From assembly GCA_041661645.1 (NCBI GenBank), contig JBAZUA010000003.1:86841-150840 (forward strand): a stretch of DNA of 64,000 bases. The letters are read 5' to 3'. Origin of the DNA: Minisyncoccota bacterium. GTDB lineage: Bacteria > Patescibacteriota > Minisyncoccia > Phycocordibacterales > UBA6065. Below, piece after piece: positions 41,993-64,000 of the stretch. Position 1 is the stretch's first letter; the number at the start of each line of letters is the position of its first letter. The position numbers and the translations under genes were made by a program. A model generated the notes under the pieces. It did not search any database. It was not told where the DNA came from and saw nothing but the letters and a program-made list of their open reading frames with translations.

Positions 41993-42885
41993 ATCTCTAT
42001 TCCGATTATGTTAAACCCTCAATCAAAAGCGGACTAGATAAGACCAGTTTCTGGCCTTGTTTAAGTACCGCTCAGACCGAGCGGTTTTTAATTTTCGGGA
42101 GGTGCTGTTATTTGAAATACGAACCCCGTCCCACTAGTCTTCCGCCCTCAAAAGCGGATGGTCTTTTCAAGAGTGGAGACGACTACATTCGTACGTTAGA
42201 TCGTGCGGATGTAAAACCTGCATCTTTCTCCCAGGAAGAGAGGATGCAGTGCAACAGGTAAAAATTAAATTGTATGAGTGTTCGTTGTAAGCGAACACTC
42301 TCATTGAGAATGAGTTTAAGTGGTTTTTAAATTTCCTAATAGGAAATTTAAGAGCATATGGTGGATGCCTTGGCTTCTGAGAAGCGATGAAGGACGTTGC
42401 GTAGCGACGATATGTTCGGGGAGCTGCCGAGCGAGCTTTGATCCGAACGTTTCCGAATGAGGAAACTCCATGTCGAGTGATCGACATGACCTTGGCCTTT
42501 ATGGTCAAGGAGCATACCCTGGGAAGTAAAACATTTCAGTACCAGGAGGAAGAGAAAACAATGTCCGCGTACTGCGGACGATATTTCCTTAGTAGTGGCG
42601 AGCGAAAGGGAAAGAGCCCAAACCTAGTCTTAATCGTGCGGTATGTCGCAAGACGTGCAGCGCGATTAAGACTGGGGGTTGTAAGATGATGATGTCACTA
42701 TTTATAGTGGAAAGAGTTACAAAATGTTTTGTTAGCAGAATTGGCTGGAAAGCCAGACCCTAGTGAGTGATAGTCTCGTATGCGAAAATAAAACATCTCT
42801 TTTATTGTCATTCTTGAGTACCCCAGGACACGAAAAGCTTGGGGGAATCTACCGGAACTAACCGGTAAGGCTAAATATTCCAGAA

Positions 42886-42918
<33 letters not shown>

Positions 42919-43505
42919 CGAAAAGAACCCCGGAGAGGGGAGTGAAATAGACCTGAAACCATATGCTTACAAGGAGTCGGAGCGGTAATTTATTACCGTC
43001 ACGGCGTGCCTATTGAAGAATGAGCCAACGAGTTAATGCATGCTGCAAGGCTAAGGGCTTGAATGCCCGGAGCCGCAGGGAAACCGAGTGTGAATAGCGC
43101 GACTCAGTAGTATGTATTAGACCCGAAGCCGGGTGAGCTTGCCATGTGCAGGTTGAAGTTTGTCGAAAGACAGATGGAGGACCGAACGCTAGAGACGTGC
43201 AATACTCTGCGATGACATGTGGTATGGAGTGATAAGCTCATCGAACTCGGTAATAGCTGGTTCTCTCCGAAATATGTTTAGGCATAGCGTCGTATGTTCC
43301 CACGAGGGGTAGAGCACTGGAAGATTCTGACAGGTAGAAATACCGCAGAACCTATCAAACTCCGAATACTCGTGGTTAAAAGTACGGCAGTAAGACCGTG
43401 GGGGCTAAGCTCCACAGGTCAAAAGGGAAACAGCCCGCATCTCAATTTAAGGTCCCAAAATTCATGCTAAGTACAAGTGAGGTGGTGAATCTTCTCTGAC
43501 GGTGA

Positions 43506-43537
<32 letters not shown>

Positions 43538-44389
43538 GAAAGCGTAACAGCTCACTCACTTAGAGGGTTTGCGCCGCAGATGATCGGGGTTAAAGCATGA
43601 TACCGAAACTGAGGATTGCATCCATATTCGTATGGGTGCACTGGTAGGAGAGTATTCTACTCTGCGATGAAGGCAAAGGGGTGACCCATGCTGGAGCGTG
43701 TAGAAGTAAGAATGTTGGCACAAGTAACCACAATGCGGATGAGAAATCCGCACGCCGGAAGATTAAGGTTTCCTTCGCAATGGATTTCAGCGAAGGGTTA
43801 GTCGGGCCTAAGGGGATGGTGAAAACCGTACCTGATGGACACATGGTTAATATTCCATGACTGGCGTTTGGTGCGATGGGAGGACGGAGCACAGTATGTG
43901 TAGCCCCTTATTGGATTGGGGTTGTTGGTCTCAGGGCGATATGCGAGGAAAATCCCGCATTCTGCATTTATTTGCGAGCCTAAGGACAGACGGGAAGGCT
44001 GGGTTCGCCCAGCGGAACTACACAGAGCGAGCTTTCAAGAAAATTCTCTAAGCATAACCAAACGCTATCCGTACCGAAAACCGAAACAGGTGATCGGCTC
44101 GAGGAGAGCAAGGCGAACGAGTGAAGGTCCTTCAAGGAACTCGGCAAAAAATCAGCCGTAAGTTAGCGATAAGGCTTGCCCTCTCTTTATTGAGGGGGCC
44201 GCAGCGAAAGTATGCCTGGCGACTGTTTATCAAAAACACAGCTCCCTGCGAACTCGTAAGAGGATGTATAGGGGGTGACACTTGACCAATGCCAGAAGGT
44301 CAACCAGCGGCGTTGCCACGTATTTATACGTGGTGGTGACTGCTGTAAGCCCTGGTGAATGTCGGCGGTAACTATAACCGTCCTAAGGT

Positions 44390-44606
44390 TCTGCATCTTT
44401 CGCAAGAAGGGTGCAGAAGGACTGGGACGGTCATAGCAGTGTTAGATGAACAAGAACCTAATAGAAGTTACACAAATAGCTACCTGACATCGCAGTAATG
44501 CATTGTCAGTCCACACATGATCAACAAGAGACCAACGTCATGGATCCGAACTCGTCAATTCGTTGATGGGAGGATTAAGATAGAGTCCGACTTAGAGGAA
44601 TAGTTG
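44390..44606 (+). ncRNA. putative group I intron (217 nt) in 23S, between E. coli-equivalent U1931 and A1932 (CCUAAGGU | AGCGAAAUUCC)
   Basis: Exon sequence is contiguous with E. coli once 44390-44606 is removed; 5' exon ends in U, insert ends in G; internal AAGATAGAGTCCGAC resembles the group I J8/7-P7 3' strand. Confidence 0.5.
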
Positions 44607-45267
44607 AGCGCAATTCCTTGTCAGGTAAGTTCTGACGCGTTGAATAGTGTAACGTCTGGGCAACTGTCTCGAAGGACAGCTCGGTGAAAATACAATCCCG
44701 GTGAAGATGCCGGGTACCTGCAGTTAGACGAAAAGACCCTAGAAGCTTTACTATAGCTTGATATTGAGTATACGATTCTGATGCGTAGCATAGACGTGAG
44801 GATTTGAAGTGCGCTTTCGGGTAGCATGGATCCGCCAGTGAAATAGCGTTCTTCAGTGTTGTATATTCTAACCCCGAGGGCAAAAACCGCGGGAGACAGT
44901 ATCTGGTGGGTAGTTTTAGTGGGGCGCTATCCTCCTAAAAAGTAACGGAGGAGCCTATTAAGGTCAGTTAGCCGTGAATGGAAACCATGGCGATAGTGTA
45001 TGGGCATAAACTGGCTTAACTGTAAGACGTACATGTCGAGCAGATGCGAAAGCAGAGCTAAGTGAACCGACGGATCGCGTTAGATGCGGCCGGAGATTAT
45101 CGGACAAAAGCTACCCTAGGGATAACAGGCTCGTTCCGCCTAAGAGTTCATATCGACGGCGGAGTTCGGCACCTCGATGTCGGCTCATCTTATCCTGGGG
45201 CTGGAGAAGGTCCCAAGGGTTTGGCTGTTCGCCAATTAAAAAGGTACGTGAGCTGGGTTCAGACCGT

Positions 45268-45556
45268 TCAGAAGGTGATTGCGCATAGTCGCGCGATCAT
45301 GCACTGGACAGTCTGAATCCCTCGGACATCATGAGGAAAAAAGAGACAACAACCAATCACGGCGCCCGCAACGAGCAATCATTGCGGAGCCAGTTAACTA
45401 ATATCGGTGAAGCCCGACAGGCGCAAGCTTGGGGTAATACCGAGGGAAGCAGAGTCATATCTGCACCCGTAGAGACTACACGTTAACCTCCACATCGAAA
45501 TAATGAGATGTGGATGAAGATATAGTCCAATGCACAGAGTAATTTGTGAAAACATG
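45268..45556 (+). ncRNA. putative group I intron (289 nt) in 23S at the E. coli-equivalent L2593 site (GAACGU | CGUGAGACAG)
   Basis: Exons rejoin to GAGCTGGGTTCAGACCGT/CGTGAGACAGGTTGGTC; 5' exon ends in U, intron ends in G; contains GTAGAGACTACACG (P7 5'-like GACUA) and GAAGATATAGTCC, which matches the Tetrahymena J8/7-P7 element AAGAUAUAGUC. Confidence 0.6.
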
Positions 45557-45956
45557 CGTGAGACAGGTTGGTCTCCTATCTACTGCAGGCGTTGATTCTT
45601 GAGGAGTTTTGCTTCTAGTACGAGAGGACCGAAGTGAACGGACCGCTGGTCTGCCTGCTGTCACGCCCGTGGCAACGCAGGGTAGCTATGTCCGGAACGG
45701 ATAACCACTGAAAGCATCTAAGTGGGAAGCCGCCTCCAAGATAAGGAATCGTTTGAGGGCCCTAGGAGACTACTAGGTTGATAGGCTTTAGGTGTACACG
45801 CAGCAATGCGTTGAGCCGAGAAGTACTAATTACCCGATCTTATTAGGAAATTTATGAATCACTCATGGCGAGGGCCATGATTACTGATTCTTGATGATTT
45901 AATTATATTTGTTGCAAGTTCGTATTCCTGAAAACAGCACGATTGAATTCTGTGTT

Positions 45957-46062
45957 CTGGTGATTTAACGCGGTGGCACCACCTCTTCCCATCCCGAACA
46001 GAGAAGTTAAACGCCGTAGTGCCGATGATAGTCCTTATGGGCGAAAGTAGGTAGTCGCCAGT
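45957..46062 (+). rRNA. rrf: 5S ribosomal RNA
   Basis: GCGGTGGCACCACCTCTTCCCATCCCGAACAGAGAAGTTAAACGCCGTAGTGCCGATGATAGT...GTAGGTAGTCGCCAG; flanking processing stem GATTGAATTCTGTG / CACAGAATTCAATC. Confidence 0.85.
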
Positions 46063-46081
46063 ACACAGAATTCAATCAAAG

Positions 46082-54590: not shown

Positions 54591-56156
54591 ATGCTCACCC
54601 CACGAATAGACAACCTCCTCTCTCGCGACCTCCGGGCGCCCGAGCGCCTGAAGGCGGCGAATTCCGAGCCGACAATATCAGTTCACCGCATCACCAACAA
54701 GGCCGCTGTGCTCTATGAGAAGCTCCGCTACCTCGTGGACTACAAGGACGAGAACACCATTCGCCGCAGCGCCATCGAACGCATACTCCGCCGCGCCATC
54801 GTCATCGAGAATCGCGCCGACGTGGGAACCTTGCTTCTACGGGAGCTCGTGAGCGCGGGATACCTGCCAAACGAGACCGTGCCCGAGAGGGAGGCGGCGG
54901 TGCTGTCGACCTTCGTCGACGCCTATCGATCCGCCTTTCCGACCCTGAGCCAGAAGATAACCATGACCGAGACCGAGAAGGTCCTGCTCTCGCTTATGGC
55001 GAGCGAGGTAGAGGCATATCTCTATCCATCGCTCGTGAATGACGCGGTTGCGGACGCATTCTTCCAGACCATTAAGGAGCGCGTCCGCTGTGTCGGCGCG
55101 ATATCCGCTGACGAACTCGACATGCAGCTTTACATAGCGTCGAGGCGCGCCCTTCTGCGCGAGGACGACGAGGCCGTGGCGTACGCCTTGTGGTGCAGGA
55201 CTCTGGGCACTGTGCCGGGATCGCTCGATACGTCAAAGGCCGTCGAAATGAGTCAGGACGTGCCGGGCACCATCGCGCGCATCAGGCTGTCCCTTCGCCA
55301 TCGCATAGGCCCGATGATCATGGGCAAGATAAAGAACGATGCCATCTGCTTTACCGTCATAGCCGAGCTCATACGCCTCTCGCCGGCGAATCCAAAGGCA
55401 TTCTTCGATGATCAGAAGGTCCTTCATGATCAGGCTGAGGCGTTTCTCTCGTCCAAATACAAGATCGAGAACAGCCGTGTCATGCAGAGCAGCCTTCGTG
55501 CCGTCGCCTACATATTCTGCACCAAGATACTGGTTGCCTTGGCACTCGAGGTTCCCTATGATCTCTATATCTCGGGCGTATTTGACTATGTTCCTCTCGC
55601 CATAAACATCATCTTCCACCCGTTTCTCCTGTTCCTCATCACCCGAAACATAAAGCTCCTCGGTCCAGAGAACACCAAGAGCGTCGTCAGTCGCATCGAT
55701 GCCATCGTGTACGGTGGGGAAGCAAAATCGATACCGCTCAAGTACAAGGCATCCGCAGGCGGCCTCAATCTCTTCTTCGGCCTCCTCTACGGTATGATGT
55801 TCCTCGTCTCGTTCGGCGTCATCGTCTGGGCCTTGGCATCCCTTGGTTTTAATCCGGTCGGCATACTTCTGTTCCTGCTCTTCCTTGCCCTCGTCAGCTA
55901 CTTTGGCCTGCGCATCAGGTACAATGCCCAAAGGTGGAGGTTCGCCGTCGCCGAGGATCGCGTGCTGTTCCTCATCTGGAGCTTCCTGACCCTGCCTGTC
56001 ATCCGCGCGGGACGATGGCTCACCGAGAAATTTTCGACCGTCAACATCTTCGTCTTCGTCCTCGACGTCATCATCGAGGCGCCGTTCAAGCTGGCCCTCA
56101 AGCTCTCCGACCTCTTCATCCTGTTCCTGAAGGACAAGAAGGAGGAGACGTATTAG
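54591..56156 (+). CDS. hypothetical polytopic membrane protein
   Basis: 521-aa ORF; soluble N-terminal ~330 aa then at least 5 TM helices; the antisense 330-aa ORF is acidic low-complexity and rejected. Confidence 0.45.
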   Translation: MLTPRIDNLLSRDLRAPERLKAANSEPTISVHRITNKAAVLYEKLRYLVDYKDENTIRRSAIERILRRAIVIENRADVGTLLLRELVSAGYLPNETVPEREAAVLSTFVDAYRSAFPTLSQKITMTETEKVLLSLMASEVEAYLYPSLVNDAVADAFFQTIKERVRCVGAISADELDMQLYIASRRALLREDDEAVAYALWCRTLGTVPGSLDTSKAVEMSQDVPGTIARIRLSLRHRIGPMIMGKIKNDAICFTVIAELIRLSPANPKAFFDDQKVLHDQAEAFLSSKYKIENSRVMQSSLRAVAYIFCTKILVALALEVPYDLYISGVFDYVPLAINIIFHPFLLFLITRNIKLLGPENTKSVVSRIDAIVYGGEAKSIPLKYKASAGGLNLFFGLLYGMMFLVSFGVIVWALASLGFNPVGILLFLLFLALVSYFGLRIRYNAQRWRFAVAEDRVLFLIWSFLTLPVIRAGRWLTEKFSTVNIFVFVLDVIIEAPFKLALKLSDLFILFLKDKKEETY

Positions 56157-57218: not shown

Positions 57219-57532
57219 GGTTGTTACCCCTCAAGTAGAGGGGGAAAAAGTTTTCGGTCTTTGAAATAATTATTGTTATTAAATATTTGAGAACGTGCAG
57301 TAGAAAACTGGTTATAAAGTTTCTACGCATTGTGCAAGTTAATTCAATTGAGAAGTTGGTTGTCGCAATTCGATGCAGATTCAGCATTCGATGCGACGTT
57401 AAACATATATAGGATTGTGGAGACCCCGGTAGCACGGGGAATCCCAGAACAAAGTAGTGAGCACTCATACTGTGATCTATTTTGTTCCGTTCGTCTTTCA
57501 GTGCACTCTTTCGGGAGTTTGCTGAAAGATTT

Positions 57533-59023
57533 AAAACAAGAGTTTGATCCTAGCTCAGGATGAACGCTGGCGGCGTGGATAAGGCATGCAAGTCAAGGGG
57601 GCCGCAAGGCAACCGGCGAACGAGGTAGTAATAAGTAGGTACGAACCTTCAAGTCAAGCATAGCTCGTCGAAAGACGGGGTAATTCTTGATAGTCCCTTC
57701 GGGGTAAAGATTTATCGCTTGAAGATCGGCCTGCTCGGTATCAGCTAGTTGGTGAGGTAAAAGCTCACCAAGGCAATGACGCCTAGGGGACCTGAGAGGG
57801 TGACCCCCACCGATGGAACTGAGACACGGTCCATACACCTACGGGTGGCCGCAGTCGAGAATCTTCCGCAATGGACGAAAGTCTGACGGAGCGACGCCGC
57901 GTGCAGGATGAAGTCCTTCGGGATGTAAACTGCTTTTATAGGGGAGGAAGTTTATTGACGTTACCCTAAGAATAAGAGGTTGCTAAACTCGTGCCAGCAG
58001 CAGCGGTAATACGAGTGCCTCAAGCGTTATCCGGAATCATTGGGCGTAAAGGGTTTGTAGGTGGTCATGTTAGTCTTTCGTTAAATTTCCCGGCTTAACC
58101 GGGAACATGCGGAGGAAACGGCATGACTTGAGGATGCAAGGGGTCTGCGGAACTCATAGTGTAGCGGTGAAATGCGTTGATATTATGGGGAACACCAAAA
58201 GCGAAGGCAGCAGACTGGGGCACTCCTGACACTGAAAAACGAAAGCGTGGGTAGCGAATGGGATTAGATACCCCAGTAGTCCACGCCCTAAACGATCTTC
58301 TCTAGCTATTTGGAGTATCGACCCTCTGAGTGGCGTAGCTAACGCGTTAAGAGAAGCGCCTGGGTAGTACGACCGCAAGGTTAAAACTCAAAGGAATAGA
58401 CGGGGACTTGCACAAGCGGAGGATCATGTGGTTTAATTCGATGGTAAACGAAGAACCTTACCAGGGTTGGAAATCTAGTTGAAGCCGAGCAGAAACGTTC
58501 GGCGCCGCAAGGCAATTAGACAGGTGCTGCATGGTCGTCGTCAGTTCGTGATTTGAATTGTTCCCTTCAGTGGGGTAACGAACGCAACCCTCATTGCCTG
58601 TTACAAGTGTCAGGCGAGACTGCCCAGCTTTTTGGTCACAATCGAAAGATTGCGCACAAGAAGCTGGGAGGAAGGTGAGGATGACGCCAGATCAGCATGG
58701 CCCTTTGATACCCTGGGCTACACACGTGATACAATGGCACTTACAACGCGAAGCGACGGGGAAACCCTGAGCAAATCGTTTAAAGAGTGCCCTAGTTCGG
58801 ATAGGAGTCTGCAACTCGACTCCTTGAAGCTGGATTCGCTAGTAATCTCGGGTCAGCTATACCGAGGTGAATACGTTCTCAAGTCTTGTACTCACCGCCC
58901 GTCAACTCAAGGGAGTTGGGAGTGCCCGAAGTCCGCGCTTGTCGCGGCCTAAGGCAAGCTCAATGACAGGGAGTAAGTCGTAACAAGGCACGGGTAGCGG
59001 AAGCTGCTCGTGGATTATTTCAA
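57533..59023 (+). rRNA. rrs: 16S ribosomal RNA (about 1.49 kb, no intron), 3' tail lacking the CCUCC anti-Shine-Dalgarno
   Basis: 5' AGAGTTTGATCCTAGCTCAGGATGAACGCTGGCGGCG; GTGCCAGCAGCAGCGGTAATAC (515 site variant); 3' GTCGTAACAAGGCACGGGTAGCGGAAGCTGCTCGTGGATTATTTCA. Confidence 0.9.
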
Positions 59024-59160
59024 GTGAAAACCGCTTTCCACTCTGTGGAGAGCTTACGGAGTCGATCATATTTATATGGGTTTTTCAGATACCTACAACT
59101 GAATGGACGTCAGGGAAGAACTGGCAAACAGAACGGAGCAAAGTAGAGGATAGTATGAAG

Positions 59161-59190
59161 AAAAAACCACCCGAAAGGGTGGTTTTTTCG
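59161..59190 (+). terminator. rho-independent terminator downstream of 16S
   Basis: AAAAAACCACCCgaaaGGGTGGTTTTTTCG. Confidence 0.75.
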
Positions 59191-59227
59191 TTGTGGCATA
59201 AGGGTTTTACGGAAGTAGGGGAAGGTA

Positions 59228-59255
59228 TTGACAAAAGTGTTGTATATGATATGAT
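59228..59255 (+). promoter_or_regulatory. candidate promoter (TTGACA-16-TATGAT) for the small ORF and tRNA-Ile
   Basis: Hexamers with 16-nt spacing between the 16S terminator and the 59328 ORF. Confidence 0.35.
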
Positions 59256-59327
59256 TATAATGTAAAAGCTCGGAGGGAGACCTCCTTTTGTCAGTCAGAG
59301 GGAATAGGAAACAGCCTGATTTCATCA

Positions 59328-59576
59328 ATGAAAACCAGTAGAACTCTTACGGATCTTGGTGTCGGTCACCATGAATCCCTGGGGGAGAAATTCCTCCGTC
59401 TCGTGAGCTCTGTAACGGAACTCACCGCGAAGCAGAAGATTCTGCTCGCCATCCCGGTCGGAATTGTCAGCGCTCCTCTTGCGTTTGGCATGATCCGATT
59501 CATCCTCATCGTTGGTTTCGGAAAATCAGCAGTCCCCATCATGTGGTTGGACTGGTGGTGGGTTTGGCTTCGGTAG
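59328..59576 (+). CDS. hypothetical small membrane protein
   Basis: 82-aa ORF with a C-terminal hydrophobic/Trp-rich segment; terminator follows. Confidence 0.3.
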   Translation: MKTSRTLTDLGVGHHESLGEKFLRLVSSVTELTAKQKILLAIPVGIVSAPLAFGMIRFILIVGFGKSAVPIMWLDWWWVWLR

Positions 59577-59588
59577 CCACCCACAAAC

Positions 59589-59628
59589 TCTGCGCCCCTG
59601 GCACCCGTGCCCGCGGCGCAGTTTTTTA
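59589..59628 (+). terminator. rho-independent terminator
   Basis: CTGCGCCcctggcacccgtgcccgcGGCGCAGTTTTTT. Confidence 0.6.
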
Positions 59629-59700
59629 TTGTCAAAACAGCCGTTTTCTGCTATATTTTCCAAGCTTCAAGCCAGGGTTGGGGCAGGGGTTCATAGACAT

Positions 59701-59773
59701 GCGCGTATAGCTCAGTTGGTAGAGCACATCACTGATACTGATGGGGTCCTAGGTTCAAATCCTAGTACGCGCA
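59701..59773 (+). tRNA. tRNA-Ile (anticodon GAT), no encoded CCA
   Basis: GCGCGTA acceptor, D-arm GCTCAGTTGGTAGAGC, anticodon loop CTGATAC, T-arm CTAGGTTCAAATCCTAG, 3' TACGCGCA. Confidence 0.85.
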
Positions 59774-59788
59774 CTAATACACAAAGCC

Positions 59789-60569: not shown

Positions 60570-61988
60570 ATGACCACCAAGAAAACCAAGATTGTCTGCA
60601 CCATAGGACCAGCCACCGAATCCCAGGAAAAGCTCGAGGCTCTCCTCAAGGCCGGCATGAACGTCATGCGACTGAACTTCTCTCATGGCGACTTCAAGGA
60701 GCATCAGGCTCGTGTGGCCAATGTCCGCAAGGCGTCTGAGAAGACCGGAATACCGGTGGCCGTTCTCCAGGACCTCGCCGGACCGAAGATTCGCATCGGA
60801 ACCTTCAAGACCGACGCCGTCATGCTGAAGGAGGGTGCCAAGTTCACCATCACCACCGACAAGGTCGAGGGCGACGAGACCAGGGTCTCCGTGAACTACC
60901 CAAGCTTCGCCAAGGAGGTGAAGAAGGGCCATATCGTCTTCCTCCACGACGGCCGCAAGAAGCTCGAGGTTCTCGAGGTGAAGGGCAATGACGTCGTTTG
61001 CAGGATCTTGGTCGGCGGCGAGATCAAGGGTAAGCGAGGCGTCAACCTTCCTGACTCTGACCTTTCCATATCAGCCCTCACCGAGAAGGATCGTACCGAC
61101 CTCGAGTTTGGCGTGAAGAACAAGGTGGACTTCTTTGCCCTCTCGTTCGTTCGCCGAGCGGCCGACATCACCGAGCTCCGCGCCATCCTCGATGCCAAGA
61201 AGTCGAAGGCAAAGATCATAGCCAAGATAGAGACCCCTCAGTCCCTCGCCTGCATAGACGAGATACTCGACCTCGTCGACGGCATCATGGTGGCCCGAGG
61301 CGACCTCGCCATCGAGATCCCCGCAGAGAAGGTTCCTGCCGCCCAGAAGATGCTCATACGCAAGTGCAACGAGCGAGGCCTTCCCGTCATCACCGCGACC
61401 CAGATGCTTGAGTCTATGATCAAGGCACCCGTTCCTACCCGAGCCGAGGTCTCTGACGTCGCGAACGCCATCATCGACGGCACCGACGCCGTCATGCTCT
61501 CCGAGGAGACAACCCTCGGTGACTTCCCGGTACTCGCCGTAGAGGTCATGTCCAAGGTTGCCCTTCAGGTGGAGAGCGAGCTCATGGGCGAGCAGTTCTT
61601 CGCGCCTGTTGGCGAGGATGGCTCTGAGAGCGTGGGCGAGGCCATGACCGCCTCTGCCGTCGACACTGCCGATCGAGTGGATGCAAAGTTCCTCGTATCG
61701 TTCACCAACGGGGGATATAGCGCTCGCATGATTTCGAGGCATAAGCCGGCACAGCGAATATTCGCCTTCACCCCGAACGAGGTTACCTTCCGACAGACGA
61801 CCCTCTCATGGGGCGTCACCCCGGTTCTGGTCGAGAAGACCACGAGCTTCGATGAGATCACCAAGGTTGTCCGAGAGCACTTCCTCAAGAGCAAGCTCGC
61901 GGCCAAGGGCGACAAGATCGTCATGGCATCGACCCTTCCTTTCGGAAAGTCGCTCGAGACCAACATGGTCCTTGTCGAGACTCTCTAA
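60570..61988 (+). CDS. pyk: pyruvate kinase
   Basis: KIVCTIGPAT, MNVMRLNFSHG, IIAKIE..Q...IDEIL...DGIMVARGDLAIEIP, MLESM. Confidence 0.9.
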   Translation: MTTKKTKIVCTIGPATESQEKLEALLKAGMNVMRLNFSHGDFKEHQARVANVRKASEKTGIPVAVLQDLAGPKIRIGTFKTDAVMLKEGAKFTITTDKVEGDETRVSVNYPSFAKEVKKGHIVFLHDGRKKLEVLEVKGNDVVCRILVGGEIKGKRGVNLPDSDLSISALTEKDRTDLEFGVKNKVDFFALSFVRRAADITELRAILDAKKSKAKIIAKIETPQSLACIDEILDLVDGIMVARGDLAIEIPAEKVPAAQKMLIRKCNERGLPVITATQMLESMIKAPVPTRAEVSDVANAIIDGTDAVMLSEETTLGDFPVLAVEVMSKVALQVESELMGEQFFAPVGEDGSESVGEAMTASAVDTADRVDAKFLVSFTNGGYSARMISRHKPAQRIFAFTPNEVTFRQTTLSWGVTPVLVEKTTSFDEITKVVREHFLKSKLAAKGDKIVMASTLPFGKSLETNMVLVETL

Positions 61989-62028
61989 ATTAAGGCCCAC
62001 AATTGTCCATTGTGGACAGAAGAGAGAG

Positions 62029-62057
62029 GAGTCGCCCCTTGCGGGGCGATTTTTCGT
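62029..62057 (+). terminator. rho-independent terminator after pyk
   Basis: GAGTCGCCCCttgcGGGGCGATTTTTCG. Confidence 0.8.
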
Positions 62058-62091
62058 GATACAATTTATCGCATATACATAAAGCACATCT

Positions 62092-62637
62092 ATGAACACA
62101 TCATTGATCACACGATCCATCATCTTTGCCGGCGCCTTCGCCCTATGCGCGACGCTTGCTCCAAACCTTGCCTCGGCCCAGACCTGGACGGCCCCGACGC
62201 TCACCCCTCCGGGAGGTAACGTTTCTGAGCCGATAAACGCCAGCTCCTCGTCCCAGACCAAGGTGGGAGGGCTTTCTCTCGGAAGCCTCAATGTGACGGG
62301 GAACGCTAGCGCTGTTGGGAGCATGTCCGCCGCCTCTTTCCTCTATTCTTCCGACAGGTCTCTCAAGGAGAACATACAGACGTTTGCGAATCCTCTCGCC
62401 ACTGTGCTTGGGCTTCGCGGGGTTTCGTTCACCTGGAAGAAGGGTGGGCAGAAGGACTTCGGCGTCATCGCCCAGGAGGTTGAAAAGGTCATTCCCGAGG
62501 CTGTTCATATCAATGTGGGTACAGGCCTCAAGTCTGTTGAATACGGAAACCTCGTCGGAGTGCTGATCGAGGCAATAAAGGCTCAACAGGTTGAAATCGA
62601 CGCTCTCAAGGCGAGAGTGGATTCCTTAACTAAATAA
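62092..62637 (+). CDS. secreted protein with C-terminal phage tail-fibre/endosialidase intramolecular-chaperone (Peptidase_S74-like) domain
   Basis: Signal peptide (AFALCATLAPNLASAQT); C-terminus SDRSLKENIQTF..LATVLGLRGVSFTWKKGGQKDFGVIAQEVEKVIPEAV...VEYGNLVGVLIEAIKAQQVEIDALKARVDSL matches the S74 chaperone-domain consensus (SDRRLKENI...G.IAQEV..V.PE.V....Y..L....I.A.QE.Q..I..L). Confidence 0.55.
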   Translation: MNTSLITRSIIFAGAFALCATLAPNLASAQTWTAPTLTPPGGNVSEPINASSSSQTKVGGLSLGSLNVTGNASAVGSMSAASFLYSSDRSLKENIQTFANPLATVLGLRGVSFTWKKGGQKDFGVIAQEVEKVIPEAVHINVGTGLKSVEYGNLVGVLIEAIKAQQVEIDALKARVDSLTK

Positions 62638-62638
62638 C

Positions 62639-64000
62639 ATGCTGAGACGCTTCCTTAGGACATCGCCGCTCATCGTTGCGCTTGTTGCGGGGGTGCTGTG
62701 CGTCGGCGCGCTCTATGCGGCGCAATCATATTCGGTCACCAAAGGCGGTGGCTCGCTTGTCGTGAACGAGTTCGGAACCTGCAAGAGGGTGACGAACAAC
62801 AATGCAAAGGACATCTTCGTCCCGACCAAGACCACGAATGAGTGGAGCCTGTTCAGGACCAACGCTCAAAATGTCACGCTCGGGGATTGCGTGGTCGGAC
62901 TCATGAGGACTGACGTGTTTCGAAATGATGGGACCAACAGCACCTACGCCACGACGTCGCCGGCGGGTACCCAGTACGCCATAATCAAAGCCTATGGCGC
63001 AGGAGGAGGGGGCACTGACAGAACCTGGGGTAAGGTCAGTACCGCGAACGGCGGGTACGGCGGATACGTGGCGGCGCAATACGCAATCTCTGGCGGAGAG
63101 TCTTTGACCATCATGCCCGGAGGCGGAGGAGGATCAGGTGGCTCGGGGGCAGGGAATGGATACGGCCCCGGTGGCGGCGGCATGACAAAGGTTGTGACGT
63201 CCCTCGGCACGCTGTGGGCGGGAGGTGGCGGCGGCGCGGCAGGAAACTCCTACAGTCAGGGACCCGCAAGCAATCAGGTCGTTGTGGATGGTGATCCCGC
63301 TGTTTATACCGGCAGCTCTGCGGGAACATGGACCACGGCGGGAGGCGGGGACAATGGCACCCTTGGCCTGGGAGGCAACGGAAAGACTCAGTCTGGCTCT
63401 CCACAGGGCAACGGCGGCTGGAACGGCGGCGGTTCGGGTGGAGCCCATTACACCCAACATGCCGGAGGCGGCGGAGGCGGAGGCGGCTATTATGGAGGAT
63501 CGGGAGGAAATAGGGGCTATGGATCGAACGGCTCTGGTGGCGACATCACGTCCTCCCCTGGCTATGGCGGATCATCATATGCGAACGGCTCCCCGACAGG
63601 TCTCACATATCTGCCCGCACGTATACCATCAGCGACATCACAGAGGCTCGCGTACGATTCGGCACTTAACAAGTATTTCTATATTAATTCTACAGCGGTG
63701 GCAGAGGGGAGCTATACCGAGGGTGGGTATTCTTCAATCACGGCACCCGTGCCTCCTGGCGCGACGAAGACGGACATCGTGATAACCGTCGCCGCCTCGT
63801 ATCAGACTCAGTGTACCCGTACGGGATGCGTCACTGTGCCGGCCGTAAAGAAAAACGGCTATTCCGTGAGTGATCCCGGGGCGGGAAAGGTCTGGACCTT
63901 CAACGTACCCAATCAGGACTTCGAGGCATTCCTTCCGGGAACTGGCTATCTCGAGAACACTGATTACACCTCTCACTCGTTTGGGACTTTCAACATAGGT
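62639..64000 (+). CDS. Gly-rich secreted protein (5' partial; continues beyond the window, more than 453 aa)
   Basis: ATG at 62639 two nt after the upstream stop; N-terminal signal peptide; long GGxGG/GYGG low-complexity region (GGGGGSGGSGAGNGYGPGGGG...GGGGGGGGYYGGSGGNRGYG); no stop before 64000; absent from the supplied ORF track because it is open-ended. Confidence 0.5.
   Translation, partial: MLRRFLRTSPLIVALVAGVLCVGALYAAQSYSVTKGGGSLVVNEFGTCKRVTNNNAKDIFVPTKTTNEWSLFRTNAQNVTLGDCVVGLMRTDVFRNDGTNSTYATTSPAGTQYAIIKAYGAGGGGTDRTWGKVSTANGGYGGYVAAQYAISGGESLTIMPGGGGGSGGSGAGNGYGPGGGGMTKVVTSLGTLWAGGGGGAAGNSYSQGPASNQVVVDGDPAVYTGSSAGTWTTAGGGDNGTLGLGGNGKTQSGSPQGNGGWNGGGSGGAHYTQHAGGGGGGGGYYGGSGGNRGYGSNGSGGDITSSPGYGGSSYANGSPTGLTYLPARIPSATSQRLAYDSALNKYFYINSTAVAEGSYTEGGYSSITAPVPPGATKTDIVITVAASYQTQCTRTGCVTVPAVKKNGYSVSDPGAGKVWTFNVPNQDFEAFLPGTGYLENTDYTSHSFGTFNIG

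Follow-up and report, generated by a model that had tools for sequence, protein, structure and literature searches.

The 64,000-nucleotide stretch analyzed here (the window; contig JBAZUA010000003.1 of the Minisyncoccota bacterium assembly GCA_041661645.1, positions 86,841 to 150,840) ends in two adjacent genes, and the question they raise is whether a small protein with a phage tail-fibre domain and the glycine-rich protein encoded behind it are the remnant of a prophage or a surface system belonging to the cell. An earlier note, made from the letters alone, had left both possibilities standing. We found that the two open reading frames (ORFs), ORF1 and ORF2, are a chromosomal two-gene operon and not a prophage. 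The second alternative of the note, a domesticated cell-surface fibre, gained support and could be sharpened: ORF1-type genes are followed by a class of partner genes that is defined by a conserved N-terminal region of the encoded proteins, hereafter the N-module, and not by richness in glycine. We lean towards the reading that the pair follows the construction principles of phage tail fibres and encodes a surface adhesin of two components whose heads can be exchanged. The two genes are as follows:

62092..62637, + strand: ORF1, predicted secreted mini-fibre of 181 amino acids (aa) with a C-terminal S74 domain (NCBI MFA6158640.1)
62639..64000, + strand: ORF2, predicted secreted partner, of which the window holds residues 1-454 of 475 (NCBI MFA6158641.1)

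Both records lie on a 169.5-kb contig of a metagenome-assembled genome of Candidatus Paceibacterota and are named 'tail fiber domain-containing protein' and 'hypothetical protein WC763_03410', respectively. The exact ORF1 sequence was present on four public contigs. A public contig of 6.6 kb (L001) was 100% identical to the window across 61990-64000 and extends past its end, as the earlier note had wished for; on it, ORF2 is complete at 475 aa, the final 66 nucleotides (nt) of the gene lying outside the window, so that the 454 codons of the window fall short by 21 residues. The glycine-rich secreted protein of more than 450 aa that the note had seen leaving the window is thereby obtained in full, with a glycine content of 22% and a signal peptide read by inspection. 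The note had placed the start of ORF2 two nt after the ORF1 stop codon; the actual gap is 1 nt (TAA at 62635-62637, ATG at 62639).

ORF1 is a minimal fibre protein consisting of the following parts:

62092..62178, + strand: signal peptide, residues 1-29 (Sec type, predicted cleavage after A-S-A; by inspection)
62179..62349, + strand: predicted mature part, residues 30-86 (57 aa; collar and short stem)
62350..62634, + strand: S74 intramolecular chaperone/autoprotease domain, residues 87-181 (Pfam, alignment, Foldseek, and phmmer)
62350-62352, + strand: Ser87 of the predicted catalytic dyad
62365-62367, + strand: Lys92 of the predicted catalytic dyad
residues 152-180: C-terminal helix, at the end of the S74 domain

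The membership of ORF1 in the S74 family is established by a profile match, by the catalytic dyad, and by a fold with a long C-terminal helix. The Pfam hidden Markov model (HMM) PF13884 (Peptidase_S74) matched residues 87-139 over its full profile (1-58) with an E-value of 1.4e-16 and 61 bits, the gathering score being 22, and tail-fibre C-termini of PHROG matched residues ~64-180 with E-values as low as 1.9e-37, while no NCBIfam model matched ORF1 or ORF2. The domain opens with S87-D-R-S-L-K92, an S-D-x-x-x-K motif, in which S87, D88, and K92 were invariant in an alignment of 21 sequences (A3); the SDxxxK motif was found in 119 of the 120 best ORF1 homologues. Thus, the S74 domain that the note had read in a 181-aa signal-peptide protein, and the Ser-Lys dyad it had asked to be checked, are both present. 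In the AlphaFold2 model, residues 87-181 had a predicted local distance difference test score (pLDDT) above 87, and the best Foldseek matches (residues ~60-181) were the ICA domain of MyRF (7dc3, E=8e-6, template modelling score 0.66) and the K1F endosialidase chaperone (3gw6). The only significant phmmer match of ORF1 among the sequences of solved structures was gp37 of phage S16 (6f45_A, E=2.4e-7), in an alignment spanning the SSDR-x-K motif and the entire chaperone domain.

The N-terminus of ORF1 has a basic n-region, a hydrophobic core, and A-S-A ahead of QTW, as read by inspection, and the model has a helix at residues 4-27. In the homologues of alignment A3, an invariant Trp is immediately preceded by A-x-A, as is usual where signal peptidase I cuts. 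The mature part begins with a collar motif conserved in the same alignment (W-T-x-P-x3-P-P-x-G-N-V-x-x-P-I-N...Q-x-K-x-G-x-L) and continues with a stem of ~25 residues that ends in SFLYS. The pLDDT of residues 30-86 was below 50, which is expected for a trimeric stem modelled as a monomer. Among collar-bearing relatives, the commonest spacing between the collar Trp and the dyad was 55 aa; therefore, ORF1 represents the minimal form of its family. More than 670 homologues of ORF1 were identified, mostly 110-310 aa in length, and the few named ones belong to Paceibacterota, Peribacteraceae, 'Patescibacteria group', Chloroflexi, and Bacteriovoracaceae.

ORF2 is composed of a signal peptide, the N-module, a glycine-rich domain, and a C-terminal region:

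62639..62719, + strand: signal peptide, residues 1-27 (..GALYA/A cleavage; by inspection)
62720..62893, + strand: N-module, residues 28-85 (conserved, ~57 aa, bracketed by Cys48 and Cys84)
62900..63628, + strand: ALK/LTK-type glycine-rich domain, residues 88-330 (Foldseek and family profile)
63629..64000, + strand: C-terminal region, residues 331-454 (to 475 outside the window), not glycine-rich, with the closing strand GGPGAAIIEYYGY

The end of the ORF2 signal peptide carries a V/I-Y-A-A motif that is conserved in the family, and the model has helices at residues 2-25. The N-module is recognised by the motif C-K-x-V-x-N-N-x3-D-I-F-V-P-T-x-T-x2-E-W-x2-F-R, with C48, P62, E68, and C84 invariant in 23 sequences. 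It was modelled by AlphaFold2 with a pLDDT of 88-96 as four strands (30-33, 39-44, 47-53, and 59-62), a helix (66-75), and a further strand (79-83). An exhaustive HMMER search with ORF2 over 1.84 billion cluster representatives returned 363 matches, most of which covered residues ~1-86 alone. No model of Pfam, NCBIfam, or PHROG matched ORF2, the N-module included. Owing to the glycine bias, a word-indexed homology search retrieved no sequence at all for full-length ORF2, ORF2 itself included; given the N-module profile, this type of search yielded no more than 12 short proteins. Against the sequences of solved structures, phmmer gave a single spurious match of ORF2 to a Gly-Ser linker and no match to gp38.

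In residues 118-320 of ORF2, the glycine content rises to 37%; no tandem repeat was found in the DNA of the glycine-rich stretch. The top 17 Foldseek matches in the PDB were all glycine-rich ('TG') domains of ALK or LTK, with probabilities of ~0.9-1.0 over 116-149 aligned columns and weak E-values of 6e-3 to 0.3. A profile built from ORF2 and five homologues matched LTK at E=9e-6 and ALK at ~1e-4. Among the six sequences of this family profile, PF21722 (Gly_rich_2) matched five (best 2e-7) and PF12810 (ALK_LTK_GRD) matched two (best 1.6e-12), while ORF2 alone matched neither model even at E<=10. The model on which the structural matches rest covers residues 1-454, without the last 21 residues and the probable closing strand, and is poor (pLDDT <50) beyond residue 205. 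These results suggest that residues ~88-330 form a beta-sandwich carrying polyglycine-II helices, a putative ligand-binding head. Predicted viral structures with an ALK/LTK-type glycine-rich domain are common in tailed phages. The C-terminal region (residues 331-475, ~145 aa), which ends in ...GGPGAAIIEYYGY according to L001, had a pLDDT below 50 and protein P0123 as its sole known relative.

The two genes are paired well beyond this locus. HMMs of the N-module and of the ORF1 family were run over every ORF of the fetched loci, and all six ORF1 relatives looked up (P0001, P0002, P0010, P0020, P0014, and P0027) had an N-module ORF directly downstream on the same strand, with stop-to-start gaps of ~1-27 nt. 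With the ORF1 family as the query, 80 metagenome loci were obtained, many of them phage-like; a strong N-module ORF adjoined the S74 ORF in nine of the 80 (script-computed gaps in the nine, -22 to +53 nt), and in this metagenome scan an N-module neighbour was carried by six of the seven closest ORF1 relatives. In the reverse direction, four of the five N-module proteins looked up (P0133, P0190, P0121, and P0176) had an S74 gene directly upstream. Protein P0123, a homologue of the glycine-rich and C-terminal parts of ORF2, has neither an N-module nor an S74 neighbour; the link of the S74 gene is therefore to the N-module and not to the glycine-rich domain.

The partner-linked S74 proteins range from 174 to 1303 aa and fall into three or more N-terminal types that are unrelated to each other; common to all of them are the S74 domain and the stem directly ahead of the dyad. 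The collar of ORF1 was considered as a docking site for the partner and ruled out, since these N-termini are unrelated. When S74 domains were clustered at 50% identity, one cluster consisted of 10 partner-linked and no viral domains, and 12 of 15 partner-linked domains had a nearest neighbour that was also partner-linked.

The proteins behind the N-module differ from locus to locus. In L005, an RCC1 beta-propeller with an ORF2-type N-module at its start is encoded by the gene that begins 2 nt behind the stop codon of the S74 gene, and the gene in the partner position of L008 encodes a Kelch propeller with the same type of beginning. Other heads include an NHL propeller (L174), Gly_rich_2 (L006), an arabinofuranosidase-like sandwich (L030), six DUF285 repeats (P0176), and a Cys-rich MopE motif (P0127). 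Glycine richness was thus rejected as the definition of the partner class, the partners in L005, L008, and L174 being propellers. Taken together, the sequences indicate that heads have been swapped behind a constant N-module in different loci.

Several observations were made around these pairs. Loci L008 (10716-11888 and 12392-12547) and L179 (8617-9855) contain arrays of two or three N-module genes behind a single S74 gene, with heads that differ from one another (Kelch, FG-GAP, and others); such arrays could mean alternative caps for one fibre. In locus L174 (5001-8521), the otherwise highly conserved str-operon region contains two successive pairs, each made up of an S74 gene and the gene behind it; they lie between fusA (EF-G) and tuf (EF-Tu)/rpsJ, and the N-module-like motif of the second partner is weak. 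A second N-terminal type of small S74 proteins, '..SNR(W/L)LY..GVYA..GHN(A/S)DEIDF..', was found in P0036-P0038, P0042, P0056, and P0058 and at L014 267-989 and L016 261-1268; proteins of this type also pair with N-module genes, and some have weak Pfam Shufflon_N matches. A third secreted family, with repeated 'GYAWSDxIGWI(S/D)' motifs, recurs beside the pairs at L174 4030-4944, L006 5044-5970, L008 3748-5904, L175 1620-2678, L176 1399-2520, and L015 831-2513, and none was found in the window. Its genes lie either just 5' of the S74 gene or close behind the partner, while in L015 the gene takes the place of the partner, and the family may be a further component of the gene cluster. P0123 (L180 4001-5794) is a protein of 597 aa from the same sequencing sample as L001, with a different N-terminus and a location beside rpsL/rpsG; possibly it is a paralogue, from the same genome or from a related one. 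In a narrow-pattern scan, the sole N-module match in the genome collection was L010 373-1266, beside an MreB-like gene on a 3.2-kb contig of an 'uncultured Gammaproteobacteria' metagenome-assembled genome; no S74 ORF was found on this contig, which has just 372 nt upstream of the N-module gene and may be mis-binned.

The closest cellular relatives are the mosaic adhesive trimer (MAT) fibres of Bdellovibrio bacteriovorus, more exactly their S74 subgroup, such as Bd3182, in which S74 fibres serve as prey-handling adhesins of the cell (Caulton et al. 2024, PMC10769870). In these fibres, the S74 domain trimerises the segment upstream of it and then cleaves at the Ser, as demonstrated for Bd3182 and its S782A mutant (PMC10769870). 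ORF1 resembles them in being encoded by the cell, in having a signal peptide (by inspection in ORF1), and in ending with an S74 domain with the SDxxxK dyad (a domain that is optional in the MAT family), and the system as a whole resembles them in its diversity by 'tip swapping' and in its occurrence in bacteria that must attach to other bacteria. By contrast, MAT fibres are ~900 aa or more with the adhesive tip in the same polypeptide, whereas ORF1 has 181 aa and the head is on the separate ORF2. According to their description, MAT fibres also have a conserved beta-rich N-terminal domain of ~130 aa after the signal peptide; ORF1 has a different collar motif, and a domain of that size cannot fit into it because only 57 residues lie between the cleavage site and Ser87. 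The present locus extends the known range of cellular S74 fibres beyond the MAT family of Bdellovibrio.

The gene arrangement recalls the long tail fibre of phages T2 and S16. In S16, a single gp38 adhesin caps the gp37 trimer, the two genes are adjacent, and gp38 consists of a conserved N-terminal attachment domain and a polyglycine receptor-binding domain (Dunne et al. 2018, PDB 6F45, as summarised in PMC6851490). In both systems, a fibre gene with a C-terminal S74-type chaperone is immediately followed by a separate gene (with a 1-nt gap here), an adhesin gene in the phage and a putative one in this locus. Its product joins a conserved N-terminal portion to a glycine-rich one for binding, which in gp38 is a polyglycine-II sandwich with hypervariable loops and in ORF2 is putatively of polyglycine-II type. 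Nevertheless, the glycine-rich matches of ORF2 were to ALK/LTK and not to chain D of 6F45, and gp38 was absent among the listed Foldseek matches, the second half of the domain having a pLDDT below 50. Moreover, gp37 and gp38 are virion genes, while ORF1 and ORF2 have housekeeping neighbours and both carry signal peptides, and the head exchange seen here, unlike in gp38, brings in wholly unrelated folds, among them propellers and repeat domains.

Two further likenesses concern single domains. The glycine-rich domain of ALK/LTK binds a protein ligand, and ORF2 residues ~88-330 share its fold and a profile-level sequence match. Unlike in the ALK/LTK domain proteins, this domain is fused in ORF2 to the N-module and to the C-terminal region of ~145 aa, and ORF2 alone stays under the Pfam thresholds. 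The MyRF ICA domain (7DC3) and the K1F endosialidase chaperone (3GW6) are the same Ser-Lys autoproteolytic trimerisation device as the S74 domain of ORF1; what domains of these types bring to maturity is a long beta-helical stalk, or a transcription factor or enzyme, whereas almost nothing precedes the domain in ORF1.

From these likenesses, we infer how the pair might work. ORF1 would be secreted, and its S74 domain would drive trimerisation and then cleave itself off at Ser87 with Lys92 as the base, leaving a trimeric stub of 57 residues made of the N-terminal collar and a short stem. The N-module of ORF2 may dock on the S74-proximal fibre tip, either exposed by the cleavage or still carrying the S74 domain, by analogy with gp38 capping the gp37 trimer in T2/S16. 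The glycine-rich domain would then be displayed as the binding head, and evolution would swap heads behind the constant N-module, so that the cell displays exchangeable heads for attachment to other cells, which for an episymbiont would be its host. Candidate Phyla Radiation (CPR) bacteria and Bdellovibrio-like predators live by attaching to other cells, and a role in cell-cell attachment is plausible because the named organisms include both.

A number of points weigh against the two-component adhesin. No cell-wall or membrane anchor that would remain after signal-peptide cleavage is recognisable in ORF1 or ORF2, the signal peptides of both were read by eye rather than with a predictor, and a predicted mature stub of 57 residues would be very short for a fibre. 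The attachment domain of gp38, as summarised in PMC6851490, is a three-helix bundle with apical Trp residues, while the predicted fold of the N-module has four strands, then a helix and a fifth strand; the gp38 parallel is therefore one of analogy and not of homology. The exception in the reverse look-up, L171 from a Bdellovibrionales metagenome-assembled genome, has an N-module gene that stands alone without an S74 gene; L008 and L179 have additional N-module genes without an S74 gene directly before them, and close S74 relatives in L015, L028, and L032 are followed by another secreted protein instead. In addition, the forward counts are biased by sampling around S74 genes and the reverse ones come from five proteins. 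Because of the stand-alone or arrayed N-module genes and the other secreted followers, the pairing is to be regarded as strong but not obligatory.

The rival explanation that survives best, which we nonetheless regard as unlikely, is that the N-module generically targets or anchors secreted proteins to the envelope (cell wall, S-layer, or pilus), with the S74 mini-fibre merely co-transcribed and no docking between the two. N-module genes without a preceding S74 gene (L171, and the second or third genes in L008 and L179) speak for such an anchor, and so does the position of the N-module right after the signal peptide on proteins with very varied heads, which is typical of anchoring domains. Other secreted families, the GYAWSDxIGW-repeat proteins for example, cluster with these genes as well. 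A generic anchor would, however, be expected beside many kinds of genes, whereas the adjacency is very tight (a 1-nt gap or an overlap) and the order is always from S74 to N-module, across unrelated S74 N-termini. The partner-linked S74 domains also form a subgroup of their own, and P0123, the glycine-rich homologue without the N-module, lacks an S74 neighbour.

Slightly less probable again is that the small S74 protein is a trans-acting scaffold for the trimerisation or folding of ORF2 or an escort for its secretion, perhaps discarded after cleavage. A mature ORF1 of 57 aa is hard to see as a functional fibre, and a 1-nt gap is consistent with translational coupling at a fixed stoichiometry. 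Yet the conserved collar of ORF1 suggests that the mature stub has a function of its own, and N-module partners are also found behind S74 proteins as long as 1303 aa, which are unmistakably true fibres (L030). Phage tail-fibre assembly proteins are encoded after the fibre gene, and an assembly factor would here stand in the reverse order. That S74 domains serve as chaperones of folding and trimerisation is known (PMC10769870), but in the known cases they work in cis, on the polypeptide immediately preceding them.

The origin of the genes from a phage was examined in the genomic neighbourhood and among viral sequences. Upstream in the window, we found genes for FtsW/RodA, two glycosyltransferases, an epimerase, SecD/SecF, tRNA-Leu, 16S rRNA, tRNA-Ile, a DUF7847 membrane protein, and pyruvate kinase, the last of which adjoins ORF1 and ends at 61988. 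Downstream on L001 follow genes for a secreted protein of 153 aa, a PALP-fold enzyme, and a LysW-like zinc ribbon, and a gene with a Mur ligase counterpart in L005. In locus L005, whose ORF1 homologue is 66% identical, the S74 gene and its partner with the different head occupy this chromosomal position too: pyruvate kinase lies before them, and the genes for the PALP enzyme, the zinc ribbon, and the Mur ligase come after them in this order. No phage genes or marks (integrase, att sites, or head, tail, and lysis genes) were seen in ~18 kb upstream (Pfam-scanned), in the rRNA/tRNA region, or in the 2.5 kb downstream, and none in the remaining ~45 kb of the window, which were viewed as an ORF list. 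The earlier note had named housekeeping neighbours together with a failing S74 profile as signs against its reading; the neighbours are indeed housekeeping genes, while the S74 match is strongly significant.

In IMG/VR, none of 100 S74 ORFs in 80 loci had an N-module neighbour, and none of these had a signal peptide or the collar. Neither protein scans of IMG/VR nor a back-translated scan for F-[VI]-P-T-x-T-x2-E-W-x2-F detected the N-module itself. A prophage remnant, that is, leftover tail-fibre and adhesin genes of a degraded phage, is therefore very improbable and was rejected, for although S74 and glycine-rich domains are both common in phage tail proteins and the gene order mimics gp37-gp38, no phage genes were seen in the nearest ~18 kb scanned with Pfam, in the rRNA/tRNA region, or in the 2.5 kb downstream, the slot is conserved in L005 with a different head, the signal peptides are foreign to the viral S74 proteins examined, and the scans of IMG/VR did not detect the N-module.

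The individual domains are already known, as is the NCBI label of ORF1 as a tail-fibre-domain protein. A literature search for S74 or tail-fibre proteins in Patescibacteria returned no paper describing such proteins, and the N-module, its systematic coupling to S74 genes, and the head swapping appear to be undescribed in the literature searched. To our knowledge, how ultrasmall episymbiotic CPR bacteria recognise and hold their hosts is largely unknown. The literature found on cultivated members concerns type IV pili in Saccharibacteria, and this locus is a different candidate that can be found by sequence alone.

Extending the two-component adhesin, we tentatively propose, as a wider and less probable claim, that CPR bacteria and some predatory or other bacteria possess a so far unrecognised modular system of a fibre plus an exchangeable cap. 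The trimeric stub or fibre matured by S74 would be a universal socket into which the disulfide-bracketed N-module, as a new docking domain of ~57 aa, plugs alternative heads (glycine-rich domains, beta-propellers, and repeat domains) that set the host or prey. Such a system would correspond, on the side of the cell, to the host-range cassette gp37-gp38 of phages, and Paceibacterota would have a first candidate for a host-specificity determinant. If the docking is true, the N-module would be a new protein-protein docking domain, and the host range of uncultured lineages would have natural markers in the partner genes. The 181-aa S74 protein could then serve as a convenient model for S74-driven trimerisation, and binding domains of any choice could be presented on the trimeric scaffold that the system provides.

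Candidate signals of transcription were read around the pair:

62032..62054, + strand: terminator-like hairpin after the pyruvate kinase gene, TCGCCCC-TTGC-GGGGCGA followed by TTTTT (read from the sequence)
62057..62065, + strand: extended -10-like element TGaTACAAT, 27 nt 5' of the ORF1 start (by inspection)

A terminator consensus scan of the + strand did not list the hairpin at 62032-62054, probably because the extension of its stem absorbs the T run. The element TGaTACAAT is a possible promoter for the two-gene operon, on weak evidence. A further promoter-like site was found past ORF2 at L001 4348-4376, and this site and the hairpin appear to bracket ORF1 and ORF2 as a separate unit. No paralogue of ORF1 or ORF2 was found elsewhere in the window.

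Some features of the neighbourhood deserve mention in their own right. The downstream 153-aa protein (L001 4481-4942) is 34% identical (E=1e-16) to a 160-aa protein of L005 (4967-5449), the gene of which lies immediately 5' of the S74 gene; it is thus a conserved neighbour, and it has no Pfam match. A predicted multi-pass membrane protein of 521 aa, likewise without a Pfam match, is encoded at 54591-56156 between secF and tRNA-Leu. The rRNA genes of the window fit an organism of the CPR both in their arrangement and in the length of the 23S gene. They are unlinked, with the 23S and 5S genes located 11.5 kb upstream of the 16S gene and protein-coding genes between them (42334-46063 and 57532-59774), and the 16S gene is followed only by tRNA-Ile(GAT). 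The 23S gene has 3517 nt compared with 2925 nt in the Rfam model; no intron family reached the gathering threshold in it, and it is ~590 nt longer than the model.

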